DNA of 64,000 bases from Okamejei kenojei (Eukaryota), in assembly GCA_035221665.1 (NCBI GenBank), contig CM069165.1, positions 24,366,001 to 24,430,000 of the forward strand, given 5' to 3'. Of the stretch, positions 46,567-62,837 are shown piece by piece (position 1 is the stretch's first letter; every line of letters starts with the position of its first letter). The notes beneath the pieces were generated by a model that was given only the letters and a program-made list of their open reading frames with translations, made no database searches and was not told the DNA's origin. A program made the position numbers and the translations under genes.

Positions 46567-46834
46567 CTTTCACTGATACAAGGTCTCCTAGACCACTCTT
46601 CTCGTTCTCTCTATAGTTGAATACTTCATTGTTATCATTCTCAGTGCCTTTCTTTGCGTGAATTCCCGTGTGAATATAATTTCTTAAGCCCACGTTCGAT
46701 AAAAATAGTCCTGATTTCTGTGTCTAACCTTGGAATCTGCAGTAAAGGAGCAACCTCAACATTATGTATCTTGTGAAGTGAACCATTGGTGTTTTGAGAC
46801 TGATGGAGCAATTTTCAGGTCAAAACCAATAGCA

Positions 46835-47731
46835 CTTGGCCTCGGAGCTATGGCGGCCTTCCAGCTTCCAGCAGCGGCGGCACGGCTTCGGAGCTCCAGC
46901 GGCGGCCTGGCCTCGGGGCTTCGGAGCTCCAGCGGCTGCCTGGCCTCGGGGCTGCGGTGCTCCAGCGGCGGCCTGGCCTCGGGGCTGCAGTGTTCCAGCG
47001 GCGGCCTGGCCTCGGGGCTGCGGTGCTCCAGCGGCGGCCTGGCCTCGGGGCTGCAGTGCTCCAGCGGCGACCTGGTTTTCGGGGCTGCAGTGTTCCAGCG
47101 GCGGCCTGGCCTCGGGCTGCGGTGCTCCAGCGGCGGCCTGGTTTTCGGGGCTGCAGTGTTCCAGCGGCGGCCTGGCCTCGGCGCTGCGGTGCTCCAGCGG
47201 CGGCCTGGTTTTCGGGGCTGCAGTGCTCCAGCGGCGGCCTGGCCTCGGGGCTGCAGTGTTCCAGCGGCGACCTGGCTTCGGGGCTGCGGTGTTCCAGCGG
47301 CGGCCTGGCCTCGGGGCTGCAGTGCTCCGCGTTCCAGCGGCAGGCCATGTAGCGGTGTTCCGGCATTCCGGCTACGGCGGTGGCGGCAGCCCGACTTCGG
47401 AGGCTCGGCCGCGGGCCTGGTGGACGGCAACATCGGCGGCCTGGATCCTCAGCGCAGAGGGAGAACAAGGAGGGAAGAAGACAGAGACTCTAAGACTTTT
47501 GCCTTCCACCACAGTGAGGAGGTGCCTGGTGAACTCACTGTGGTGGATGTTAAATGTGTTTATTGCGTGTTTTGTTTTTTTATTATATGTTATGACTGCA
47601 AGGTAACGAAAAACACTGTGTGCTTTGCCATGTGAAAGTTAGATTAGATTAGATTAGATTATCCTTTATTGTTGTTCAGACCGAAAGGTCTGAATGACAA
47701 TAAAGGATAATCTAATCTAATCTAATCTAAC
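46835..47731 (+). mobile_element. GC-rich non-autonomous retroelement with internal minisatellite and (ATCTA)n tail
   Basis: 3' module shared with 22243-23009; ends AATGACAATAAAGGATAATCTAATCTAATCT, similar to Rex1-type 3' ends. Confidence 0.65.
46885..47340 (+). repeat. 33 bp GC-rich minisatellite, about 14 units
   Basis: Unit C(G/A)GTG(C/T)TCCAGCGGCGGCCTGGCCTCGGGGCTG with variants (GTTTTCGGGG). Confidence 0.95.
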
Positions 47732-49633: not shown

Positions 49634-50452
49634 TGAAGATGATTGAATATGTGCGATAGTTATGGAGCATTTTGTAAAACCCAGATTTTTACTGAGGGAT
49701 AATCAACAAAATCTGGTCAGTTCACAATTTTTTCACCTGTTTTTCATGATCTGTTTTTAAAGAATGTATTTATCAAAATGTAAATTTCCTCCTGTAAATA
49801 CAGATTCCTACCTTTATTCGTCGATTTGCTATCAAAAAGAAAAAATTTGCAACAAGATTGAGGAAAGATTAATCAAACTAATAACTAAATAAGGTTGGGA
49901 AATGTTTCATGGGCAATACGGTATATATTAATACAGTATATATTCCATCAAACTTCACCTGGTCTAGATCTTCTTTGAAGGGAAATATGAATATCTATGG
50001 AAAGCATTGTTTTTATTAGGATACCTGCATGGATACGGAGAATGCACCCTCTTTTCAGCTGGTGTTTTCAAAGTGATTTTTTATCTCCTTTAGATATCTG
50101 TTTTATGGTCACTTGATGCTAATCGCTACATCCCCAAGATATGCTACAGAACTTCAAAGGAGTGTCTTGTGTCCAATATTCTTCAGCTGCTATGTCCCTC
50201 CAGCACAATATCAGACGTGCAGATGTTCGCTGCTGAAAGCAGAGTTCACTTCCACTCGCAGCTCCCCAGATAATAAAGCAATCTGTGGCCGCGTGCATCA
50301 GAACCTGTGCGCAGTGGAGCGCAATCAAAGACGAGTCTCACCCCGGACACTCCCTCTTCTCCCCTCTTCCCATCAGTTAAGAGGTCTAAAAGTGTGAAAA
50401 CACATACCTCCAGATACAGGGACAGTTTCTTCCCAGCTGTTATCAGGCAACT

Positions 50453-50645
50453 TCTTCTTCCGTGTCCATCTTCCATGTTTCAAATGTTGGCCTCGCTGTC
50501 ATCGTCCACCCTGAAAAGGACCCAAGCTTCTGGCGACAATCAGTGGGAGCCATCACTTGTTGCAATAGATGATGGTGGTAACAGAATTAGCTCAGGATAC
50601 TTCCAGTTTCCAGCCCCGCGACGTGAACGCTTCTGCTATGGGGCC
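50453..50645 (-). mobile_element. Short retroposon with 5' CPEB3-like HDV ribozyme and (GAA)n tail (family B)
   Basis: TSD ATC(A/G)GGCAACT at 50442-50452 and 50646-50656; 3' end GGACACGGAAGAAGA; inserted in a Rex1 remnant. Confidence 0.85.
50579..50645 (-). ncRNA. HDV-like (CPEB3-like) self-cleaving ribozyme
   Basis: GGCCCC A UAGCAGAA GCG UUCACGU CGC GGGGCU GG AAACUGGAAGUAUCCUGAG CUAA UUCUGUUA: P1 6 bp with G1.U, P2 8 bp, P3 GCG/CGC, L3 UUCACGU, J4/2 CUAA. Confidence 0.8.
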
Positions 50646-51369
50646 ATCGGGCAACTGAACCATGTGATTACCAACTAGAGAACAGCTCTGGGCTACCATC
50701 TACCTCATTGGAGATGATCGAACTATCTTTAGTCCAACTATCTTGCACTAAACTTTATACCCTTATCCATGTGCTGCGAATGGCTTGATTGTAATTATGA
50801 TTGTAATATTTCCACTGGCTGGATAGCATGGAACTAAAAGGATTTTCACTGTACTTTGGTATTGATAACAATGAACTTTCTGAAATGAAAAAAAGTTCTT
50901 TGTTGAACTTCTTCATGACCATGTGCCAATCCCAAACTGTGAGTCTCTCTCAACCTCCTGGGATGTTCATGGAATTCTTCCGTTCCCATCAACACACTGG
51001 GAGTCATCACCGAATGTTATCTTAACTCGATCTGTCACATAAATACTGCAGTTAGTCTACACTAAAGGCCAGGAAGAAATATTACAAATTCCATTAAAGG
51101 CACTGCATATATCGGCTTTCCAATAAAGTTTTGTCCAGGACTGAATATAAATGTTGGGCAACTTGATGGAATTTTGGTTCTGGAACATGACATGCTGGCT
51201 CAGCCTGTGATACCTACATCCCTAGAATTAATTAAACATCAAAGAAGAAATGTACACAATTAAAACTAGGATGCATACATTTTGCTGGAGTCCGGGCAAG
51301 GTTTGAGCAGTGCATTCACTTAGGACTAACTCATTATTTTTCAATGATTGTAGAACATAGAGGAGCAAT

Positions 51370-59279: not shown

Positions 59280-62200
59280 ATTTACGTATGACTCAAAATA
59301 TCATAATATTATTATCTCGGATCATGCTCCATTAACATTTAAGATAAAATTAAAAGACATAACTATTAAAACCTCTAACTGGAGACTCAACCCCCAAATA
59401 TTAAATTATAAGGCTTGTTATGATTACTTGGTAAAACAGATTAAATTATTTTTTGAAACAAATGCAAACCTGGAATTTCACCATCAGTGCTTTGGGATAC
59501 ATTTAAAGCATTTATGCGTGGTGCGATAATATCAGCACACGCATACTTTAATAAGGAAAATCGAAAGACTCAACAAAAGTTGGAAAATGAAATAAAACAA
59601 TTAGATTTTGAAAATGCAATATCCCCTTCAAAGGGGCTAAGTAATAAAATTGCATCATTAAAATATGCTAAATAAAATATATTCAAGTCAGATTATTAAA
59701 GTTTTTCAACAGACTAAACAAGTACACTTTGAATTTGGGGATAAACCACAAAAATTACTGGCACGCCAGCTTAGAAAATTAGATGAGGAGAAAATGATAC
59801 ATAAAATTAGATCTGAACAAGGAGAAATATTGACTTTACCAAAAGATATCAATGATACATTTTTACAATATTATCAAAATCTTTACTCATCTAAACTAGC
59901 AGGACAATCAGATGGAATGGAAACATTCCTACAAGAATGTCATATTAATAGTTTGGATCAGGAAGGTAGAGACTTGTTAAATGCTGATATATCAAGATAT
60001 TGAAGAATCAATTGGATAATTAAATAACGGAAAAGCCGCAGGCCCTGATGGCTTAAGTGTTGAATTTTATAAGAAGTTTTATGATCTGATCTCTCCACAT
60101 TTACATATAATATATAAATATGCTTATGAACAAGGAAAGTTACCAGAATCATTAAATTAATCTACAATTACACTTATCCCTAAAGCTGATAAAGATTTGG
60201 AAGACCCTGGGTCATACAGAGCAATAGCTCTTTTAAACACTGATCAAAAATACTAACTAAAATTTTATCTCGGGTGCTAAGTTTAGTGATTAATAACTTA
60301 ATACATCATGACCAAACAGGTTTTATCCCAAAACGCTATTCATCTTATAATGAGACGCCTATTCAATATCATATACTCAAAAAGAGTGAATGATATTGAA
60401 CTAGCTGTCATATCCTTAGATGCTGAAAAAGCATTTGACCAGGTTGAATGGCCATATTTATTTAAAATAATGCAGACATTTCAACTGGGGGATAGATTTT
60501 CCAAATGGGTAAAAATCATATACTCGAATCCAACTGCAAGATTATTAAGAAATCAAATGTTATCAGCAAAATGTAATCTCTTTAGGGGTTGTAGACAAGG
60601 ATGCCCATTATCACCATTACTATTTGCTCTGGTAATAGAACCATTAGCCGAAATGATTAGATCAGAACCAGAAATATATGGATATAATACCAAAACTACA
60701 ATGAATAAAATATCTCTATACGCAGATGACATCTTAATTTATATCACAAAACCGGAGATTAGTATTCCCAATCTACTTAATGTTATAACTATGTTTGGCA
60801 CATTTTCTGGGTATAGAATTAACTGGAATAAAAGTGAAATTATGGCTATAACTGGAATAAAATTAAATATATTAGAACAATTCCCACTTAAAATAGTCAC
60901 GGACAAATTTAACTATCTAGGAATTAATGTATCTAAATCCTATAACTGTCTATTTAAATATAATTACCCTCAATTGTTAAATAAACTAAAAAAATATATT
61001 TTATATTGGAAAACACTACCTATTTCAATGATCGGTATGATAAATGCTATAAAAATGATTTTTTGCCACAATTGTTATATTTATTTCAAGCCATCCATTT
61101 ATATCTCTCTAAAATGTTTTTAAAAAAATCCATACTTTGGTTAATAGTTTTATTTGGGACTATAAAAATCATCGAATAAGTAAAACACATCTATGTAAAT
61201 CTAAAATAAATGGTGGACTAGCACTACCAAATTTATTATATTATTTCTGGGCAGTTCAGATTAAGAATATGAATTTTTGGTTGGTAAATTTAGATTATGA
61301 GCCAAGCTGGCTAAAGATGGAAAAGGAAGACTGCCTTTTGATGTAGGTTCGATTCTTTTTGCACCAAGGGAAGTACAAAAAAAAACGCATGGTGATAACC
61401 CCATAATTCATAGCAATAGATGTATTTGGAAACAAATAGTTAAGACCCTACATATGGATAATTTGTCACTTTGTTTGCCAATTATGAATAATCCTTTGTT
61501 TAGGCCCTCTGTATTGGACAAGGGGTTTAGACACTGGAATGATTTAGGAATTAAAAGGATAGAACACCTTAACAAGAAAGGAAAATGTCTTTCATTTCAA
61601 GAGTTACAGGATATCTATGGATTGCAGTCAAATAACATATTTAGGTATTTACAAATTAGAAATTATATTAAGTCAAATACGCAAGACTATAAAAATGGAA
61701 AACCAGGATTATTAGATGAATTGTTTAATAAATACCCAAATACAGAAAAATTAATAGCGTATATATACAATACTATCTTGGATAGGGAAATCCCAACATC
61801 GGAAATATATCGACAAACATGGGAAAATTAAATCGGTTTATCTATAACGAAGGAAACTTGGGAAGAAAGCCTACAATGTATACAACGTTGCTCATTAAAT
61901 GCTAGACATATATTGATACAATTTAAGGTACACAGATTACATTATTCAAAAACGAAATTAAATAGAATTTATCCTAACATTTCTTCTATTTGTGATAAAT
62001 GTCAGAACTTGGAAGCTAATTTAACGCATAGTTTTGTAACATGTATAAAACTCAATTATTATTGGACAGAAATCTTTAGAGTTATCTCTGAAGTTCTTAA
62101 AATTAAACTGGACCCGGATCCAAAATTAATAATATTAGGAGTTCCGGATTCAAATCTAATATTAACAGTAAACCAAAGAAATGTCTTGGATTACTGTTTG

Positions 62201-62837
62201 ATAATAGGGAAAAAATTCATATTGAAATTTTGGAATTTCAATATTAATTTTGAAGGGAACATTATCCCCCACAATTAAAATGTGGACAGTGGAAATGTTG
62301 GAGACGTTGCATTTGGAAAGAATCAGATTTGTCCTAATGGACAAATACGAACTCTTTGAACAGATATGGTCTCCATATACAGAATATTTAAAGGGTAGCT
62401 GTTCTTGGCATCACAACTCAATGGGTACCCGGCAGGATTAGATGAAAATAATTCCTTTTTAAAAAATTTGTATACATGTCCCTATTGATATCGTTATTTG
62501 AAATTGTGTTATTCACTATAATCTTTATTTATATATATATATCACTTTGTTTTAATTAAATATATAAAAAAACTTTTTTTTTAATATTTTTTATTATTTT
62601 TTTTTTCCCTTTCTTTTCTCTTTCTCTCTCTATATAATCAAAATTATTATTTAATCACTATTCTTATTGATTAAAATCTATTCTTTTCTTTTTTCTAAAA
62701 AATAGAAGTTTATAAGAATTATTCGTAACATCCGTATACTTATTGAAATAAATTGGTTGTGTATTTGAAAAGTTGTTATACCGTTGTTATGATGGATTAC
62801 GTCTAATAAAAATATTATTAATAAATTTTAAAAAAAC
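59280..62837 (+). mobile_element. 5'-truncated L1-clade LINE (about 3.5 kb), AT-rich
   Basis: End of the APE domain (ISDHAPL, WRLN), WDTFKAFMRG, FEFGDKPQKLLARQ, GKAAGPDG, SYRAIALLNTD, SLDAEKAFDQVEW, GCRQGCPLSPLLF, LYADD, GGLALPN, C-terminal CDKC..H...C knuckle; T-rich 3' UTR, AATAAA and A-rich end. Confidence 0.95.
59310..62441 (+). pseudogene. L1 ORF2 (endonuclease/reverse transcriptase) pseudogene
   Basis: ORF fragments 59487-59675, 59665-60003, 60308-61123, 61137-61346, 61454-61831, 61913-62278 and 62250-62441 separated by frameshifts and stops. Confidence 0.92.

Follow-up and report, generated by a model that had tools for sequence, protein, structure and literature searches.

A short retroposon with a predicted CPEB3-type ribozyme at its 5' end, derived from a Vingi-type LINE in Okamejei kenojei, and the probable kinship of its relatives to the mammalian CPEB3 ribozyme

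The 193-bp element at 50453..50645 (minus strand) of the window, the 64,000-nucleotide stretch of Okamejei kenojei DNA analysed here, is predicted to belong to an internally deleted family of a 3.1-kb Vingi-type LINE, the ribozyme at its 5' end would free the RNA at the first base (G1), and the mammalian CPEB3 ribozyme would have been exapted from a sister of this family. This joint reading, which was built from sequence comparison, is given a probability of roughly 0.8.

Structure and copies of the element

Read from its 5' end, the element consists of a predicted 67-nt HDV-like ribozyme of CPEB3 type (50579..50645), with the predicted cut directly 5' of G1 at 50645, followed by the rest of a LINE 5' UTR across a 42-nt deletion (50554..50578), the start of the LINE ORF (50489..50553, with the ATG at 50553-50551 and about 22 codons) and the LINE 3' end with a (GAA)n tail (50453..50488), which is the predicted binding site of the LINE protein; all these parts lie on the minus strand. 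The first-pass annotation had called the element non-coding, and this has to be amended, since the ATG and the roughly 22 codons kept from the LINE make the 193-bp body partly coding in origin. The element is flanked by an 11-bp target site duplication (TSD), with the tail-side copy at 50442-50452 and the other copy adjoining G1 at 50646-50656 (both given on the plus strand). The length and position of this TSD were as first described, but one mismatch was found between the two copies. The TSD site is present once in other copies of the host repeat that the element interrupts, an older high-copy sequence at 50323..50745 (plus strand, approximate limits) that is the 3' end of a LINE and that we take to be Rex/Babar. 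Elsewhere in the window, a region of GC-rich tandem repeats, in which both strands carry long open frames, was observed at 46715-47632, and decayed LINE reading frames were observed at 59662-62275 (plus strand), which are presumably L1/Tx1-like, going by their RT motifs.

The genome search (2.76 Gb) returned 2,738 candidates, and all 40 scored copies covered 191-193 of the 193 bases, with 92-95% identity to the window copy in the 39 others. The exact 22-mer of the 3' end occurred 270 times in the genome compared to 0 times for the control, and this figure is a lower bound on the copy number. A mobile family had been proposed, and at least 270 copies in the genome, together with the TSDs, bear this out. 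At least 71% of the words of the element were also found in DNA runs of five organisms. Human contamination was dismissed as the source.

After 4 duplicates were dropped from 60 fetched family loci, 56 distinct copies remained. The alignment starts at base 1-4 in 49 of these and exactly at base 1 in 44, and a TSD adjoining the intact 5' end scored above threshold in 37 of the 49, compared to 2 of 480 mismatched flank pairs, in agreement with the earlier claim that the 5' end is fixed at G1. Among 26 copies picked by their 3' end alone, 19 reached the 5' end, 2 started at bases 8 and 11, and 5 were truncated. The insertion boundary coincides with the predicted cut in families with a 6-bp P1 and in those with a 7-bp P1 alike. 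A longer variant of the element (about 207-211 bp) was observed at L045 and L046, two loci that share their flanks, and is likely a subfamily copy within a duplicated segment.

Parent LINE

A protein search with a related LINE led to two loci carrying the last ~40 bases of the element, and a DNA search from one of these led to L135, a LINE copy of 3,106 bp with a 12-bp TSD, which begins with the ribozyme of the element and finishes in its tail. The element corresponds to LINE bases 1-199 minus 42, fused to the last 36 bases. A search with the 3'-end pattern gave short copies at 30 of 30 loci and not the parent LINE, since the LINE differs within that 22-mer. A search for an autonomous LINE sharing both termini had been proposed with the first description, and L135 is its result; the Ingi/Vingi-type partner suspected there proved to be of Vingi type, without RNase H.

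L135 is frameshifted and decayed, and in several frames it is colinear with APE+RT proteins of 940-960 aa. Compared with the proteins P0003 and P0040, the latter an Anolis carolinensis homologue presumed to be Vingi, it is colinear over the APE, the RT and the C-terminus at 30-57% identity, and this alignment leaves no space for an RNase H. No RNase H match was found by Pfam in seven fragments of L135, and none was listed among the 120 best homologues of the protein of another Vingi-type family of this genome (family F, below). Decayed APE fragments went unrecognised by Pfam, and the PDB search gave no close relative of the parent protein. Vingi elements are described as compact, with a single ORF and without RNase H (PMC13708176), and Vingi is one of four clades that make bipartite derivatives (PMC5786205). 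The parent LINE is therefore likely a member of the Vingi clade, a label that follows from its architecture (single APE+RT ORF, no RNase H) and not from a labelled reference.

Judging by both LINE ends and the TSDs, the window element is a bipartite, internally deleted, non-autonomous LINE family (SIDE type). The first description as a ribozyme-processed SINE was right as to the mobile family and has to be revised as to the SINE with a head of its own, since the element is a bipartite deletion derivative of a LINE. A tRNA-, 5S- or 7SL-derived SINE was dismissed because neither a tRNA nor an A-box match was found and the head is the 5' end of the LINE itself.

Predicted ribozyme fold

On the minus strand of 50579-50645, P1 (GGCCCC/GGGGCU, 6 bp, with a G1.U34 wobble) pairs 50640..50645 with 50612-50617, J1/2 is a single A, and P2 (8 bp) pairs 50631..50638 with 50579-50586. 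The hairpin of P3 (3 bp) and L3 (UUCACGU, 7 nt) occupies 50618..50630, the 3' strand of P1 and the GG that forms the two P1.1 pairs with L3 lie at 50610..50617, and a weak P4 region at 50591..50609 is followed by J4/2 (CUAA, 50587..50590), with the predicted catalytic C at 50590. The nested double pseudoknot of HDV-like type that had been proposed is supported by standard pairing in 19 of 19 P1/P2/P3/P1.1 pairs of the window copy, two of them G.U wobbles arising from its own C>T changes, and by compensatory changes across families in P1, P2 and P3. The covariance-model check recommended earlier matched the window copy to Rfam RF00622 (CPEB3 ribozyme) with a score of 35.1 bits and an E of 1.2e-5, where the cut-off is 35 bits, and this was the single Rfam match across the window.

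Among the family copies, the core letters were found as C56 in 50 of 51, G1 in 44 of 44, U34 and U19 each in 48 of 51, and G24 in 45 of 51; both P1.1 pairs, the catalytic C, the G1.U pair and the L3 U/G are retained in the family. Among the 44 full heads, all core letters were retained in 28, and all 19 pairs as well in 16. The roles of the catalytic C, the G.U at the cut site and the L3 reverse wobble have been described (PMC4836649), a 6-bp P1 is usual for active HDV-like ribozymes (PMC4908430), and the HDV-like family is invariant at six nucleotides only (PMC8256844). P4 of the window family has only 3-4 bp at -1.6 kcal/mol, and a competing hairpin could sequester the P1.1 GG. Single-sequence folding of the window copy gave a z of -1.1, by a method that has no model of pseudoknots. 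The ribozyme is conserved no better than the body among family copies (4.0% vs 3.6% at non-CpG positions), as is expected if the copies decay neutrally.

Ribozyme heads of other families

A genome search with RF00622 gave 30 matches over the cut-off among 59 scored, with a maximum of 66.8 bits, and the 30 sort into four other families (B, C, D and E). Heads of sister families score 59-66.8 bits, compared to 35-42 bits in the window family. The head of family B lies on a Vingi-type LINE of about 3.1 kb with a 10-bp TSD adjoining G1, and a family D head continues into a Vingi-type ORF. At 6 of 8 family C loci, the head is joined to a piece of Vingi-type ORF or to a 3' end of that type. P4 is clear in families B, C and D. 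The commonest letters of seven family C copies agree with the Rfam CPEB3 consensus at 59 of 67 positions (compared by eye), and none of the 14 P4 stem bases differs. The mismatches fall in the L4 loop, at position 9, at one L3 base, at one wobble and at one P2 pair, where the change is compensated; C9U is found among mammals (PMC8233481). The loci L062, L064 and L076 hold single copies from families C and B that have lost their interior and keep the head and the 3' end, indicating that bipartite forms arise repeatedly.

Family E (L082-L085, L087 and L089; at about 1512-1680) is a second short ribozyme-headed retroposon of about 165 bp with a GAA tail and a minimal P4, and a T precedes its head, within the TSD, in 6 of 6 copies. 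The Vingi-type family F has a 5' end without a CPEB3-like core. Its LINE (L124-L127) is younger, with copies about 95% alike, and its protein shares 82-87% identity with two teleost proteins, for which horizontal transfer is possible.

A cross-family fold test, made on 21 hand-picked and related heads (19 distinct) that represent few independent events, found pairing in 91.4% of the P1/P2/P3 cells compared to 43-58% in slid controls, and 9 of 18 pairs were changed on both sides. None of the other Rfam ribozyme families scored at E<=1 on 18 loci.

A degenerate core pattern was found in 15 metagenome stretches. Seven of these (three distinct sequences in two families) run into a Vingi-type ORF, one of them at full length with a 14-bp TSD, and one copy from the metagenomes carries an additional G at the 5' end. 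Over the first 38 positions of the CPEB3 consensus, the head of one metagenome Vingi-type element agrees at 36. Two further stretches, which are one sequence (L179/L180:3492-3571), hold a complete ribozyme of 66.5 bits on an AT-rich contig, and a Vingi ORF is absent up to 3.5 kb from it; such a solitary ribozyme recalls the mammalian state. The remaining 6 of the 15 matches were set aside as chance because the rest of the fold was missing. Every ORF attached to a CPEB3-like head was Vingi-type, and the LINE families with such heads are about 45-55% identical in protein and occur in different hosts. The P1 sequence is common to CPEB3, families B, C and D and the metagenome elements, and the 7-bp P4 stem is common to CPEB3 and family C. 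P1 and P4 vary freely among the Vingi-type families.

Inverted ribozyme heads

An antisense piece of Vingi-type ORF adjoins the 5' end of the ribozyme in 10 of 24 loci of families B, C and D, and the same inverted layout was found at one family A locus and one further family C locus. The junction lies about 0-9 bases from G1, and TSDs enclosing both head and body were seen by eye in five inverted loci. Inverted heads of 80-110 nt joined near G1 to a 3' body were observed at L063, L065, L067, L069, L071 and L075, and further ones at L078, L079, L088, L090, L123 and L165. Among ribozyme-bearing loci, this layout is far commoner than colinear copies. The inverted layout matches twin priming, which is established for L1. 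The junctions fit an RNA that starts at G1, and a twin-priming inversion could strand a ribozyme of about 90 nt, that is, it could be the route by which a lone copy arises. In the available text of the Vingi literature, no description of frequent inverted ribozyme heads was found.

Relation to the mammalian CPEB3 ribozyme

The human 20-nt run and 3' end given in the first description were confirmed by eye from primers printed in PMC5984629. The identity of this run to human CPEB3 is true of the window copy, where a private C>T change at 50626 makes L3 the same as in CPEB3, whereas the family matches at 19 of 20 positions, since 43 of 51 copies have C at L3 position 20. Compared with CPEB3, the P1 of the window family is one pair shorter (6 bp), and its P4 is unrelated. 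The suggested kinship with the source of the CPEB3 ribozyme holds in general, with the window family as a cousin and the sister Vingi-type families as much closer relatives.

Drz-spur-3, an HDV-like ribozyme with a different P1 and P4, equals CPEB3 at 13 of 21 core positions (by eye), which is short of near-identity. Core matches alone would therefore overstate kinship, and the argument for descent is built on the P1 and P4 identities only.

The CPEB3 gene of the host was located. Its first coding exon shares 94-96% identity with shark proteins and no more than 73% with the other vertebrate proteins listed, which places the host among the cartilaginous fishes. No Rfam match was found in 150 kb spanning all coding exons and introns of this gene, and no core motif was found in 200 kb of the locus, indicating that the ribozyme has not resided in that intron since ancient times. 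The window element, multi-copy and dispersed, is a homologue of the CPEB3 ribozyme and not its orthologue. A fourth CPEB2/3/4-type zinc-finger exon, beyond the three expected paralogues, was observed at G000:C38:11603949-11604134 (L188). A CPEB3 ribozyme copy is reported from mammals only in the available text of PMC8233481, and remnants of Vingi, X12_LINE, are present in the human genome (PMC5753468). Quite probably, as these comparisons suggest, the mammalian CPEB3 ribozyme is the exapted 5' end of a Vingi-clade element.

Discussion

In the proposed mechanism, a host or internal promoter would transcribe through a copy, the head would fold as a nested double pseudoknot, as the pairing and the compensatory changes suggest, and the RNA would, by homology, cleave itself before G1 via C56. 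The parent APE-RT protein would bind the shared 36-nt 3' end and copy the RNA by target-primed reverse transcription; mobilisation in trans via this 3' end is highly probable. Insertion products show duplications of 7-13 bp and the (GAA)n tail, and the copies would afterwards decay neutrally, as is seen in the family. HDV-like ribozymes release R2 and L1Tc from co-transcripts (PMC6765202, PMC4035085), and by analogy, self-cleavage very probably frees the element RNA in the same way. For CPEB3, a Vingi head, perhaps in the form of a deleted or inverted fragment such as are common in this genome, would have been inserted once, into a CPEB3 intron, before the marsupial-placental split and been retained. 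The CPEB3 ribozyme, the best known of the human self-cleaving ones, would then be a domesticated Vingi 5' end with mobile relatives among ribozyme-headed LINE and SIDE families of cartilaginous fish and other animals, with twin priming showing a route, and we regard this as probable.

The fixed 5' end might instead be set by an internal promoter at +1, with the fold being vestigial or having a protective or translational role, at least in the family with the 6-bp P1. The trypanosome Pr77 head doubles as promoter and ribozyme (PMC4035085), and the weak P4 and competing hairpin of the window family, as well as the extra G of one metagenome copy, would fit such a promoter. Promoter and ribozyme roles can coexist, however, and the catalytic C, G1.U, the L3 U/G and both P1.1 pairs are retained in the family, a 6-bp P1 is normal among active HDV-like ribozymes (PMC4908430), and the boundary follows G1 as the length of P1 changes, so that this explanation is improbable compared with release by self-cleavage.

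Concerning the origin of the CPEB3 ribozyme, the element and its ribozyme may be as described while the likeness to CPEB3 reflects convergence under the HDV fold and not descent. This would account for the core likeness of drz-spur-3 and for the differing P1 and P4 of the window family, but an HDV-like family with only six invariant nucleotides (PMC8256844) would hardly impose the CPEB3 P1 sequence on families B, C and D and on metagenome elements, or the 7-bp P4 stem on family C, where P1 and P4 differ freely even among Vingi-type families; convergence is thus very improbable. Descent with another history, either from Ingi or from a further clade after an exchange of heads with Vingi, or by transfer from a host gene to Vingi, has only a small chance. 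LINE ends are exchangeable, Ingi, the sister of Vingi, carries HDV-like ribozymes (PMC5786205), and the metagenome head of L179/L180 has no Vingi ORF within 3.5 kb. On the other hand, all ORFs attached to CPEB3-like heads are Vingi-type, these heads occur on strongly diverged families in different hosts while reports of the CPEB3 copy are confined to mammals (PMC8233481, in the text available), and the ribozyme is absent from the host CPEB3 gene. Exaptation from a Vingi 5' end is therefore the preferred reading.

Ribozyme-headed bipartite LINE derivatives are already known in NARTc and RIME, which derive from L1Tc and ingi with the Pr77 ribozyme. Like the element, they keep the ribozyme head and the 3' end, have the cut site at base 1 and are inserted at random with TSDs (PMC4035085, PMC6765202), whereas the element differs in its vertebrate host, its parent without RNase H, its CPEB3-type ribozyme sequence and an activity that is predicted only. 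R2 and RTE also have an HDV-like ribozyme that frees the element from a co-transcript, but they belong to other LINE clades, R2 is site-specific, and no sequence kinship to CPEB3 is stated in the available text (PMC6765202). Vingi LINEs and their bipartite derivatives resemble the parent and the element in the length of about 3.1 kb, the single APE+RT ORF, the absence of RNase H and the deleted copies (PMC13708176, PMC5786205). The CPEB3 ribozyme (RF00622) shares with the window head the topology, the 1-nt J1/2, the 8-bp P2, the P3/L3 sequence, the G1.U and the catalytic C (PMC4836649, PMC8233481), and with the heads of sister families the P1 and P4 sequences too. The window family departs from it in the 6-bp P1, the two canonical P1.1 pairs, the CUAA linker and the unrelated P4, and the CPEB3 ribozyme is single-copy and conserved whereas the window and sister heads are mobile and decaying.

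The clades for which a 5' ribozyme is listed are R1, R2, R4, RTE and Ingi, together with LOA, and Vingi is not among these six in the text available (PMC5786205). The literature search, within the article text available and with Repbase, Dfam, patents and supplements outside its scope, gave no statement that Vingi bears such a ribozyme or that the ribozyme of CPEB3 came from Vingi; the family or the CPEB3 link may already be named in those sources or in key ribozyme or Vingi papers.

With these predicted heads, Vingi would join the LINEs that carry a ribozyme at the 5' end, and this is relevant to template processing; Vingi is now used for RNA-only gene insertion (PMC13708176). The families also offer natural variants for ribozyme biochemistry, namely the 6-bp P1, the two-pair P1.1 and the minimal P4. 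For the memory-linked CPEB3 ribozyme, the proposed history provides a concrete and testable origin, in which it would be an exapted transposon end and not a host invention.
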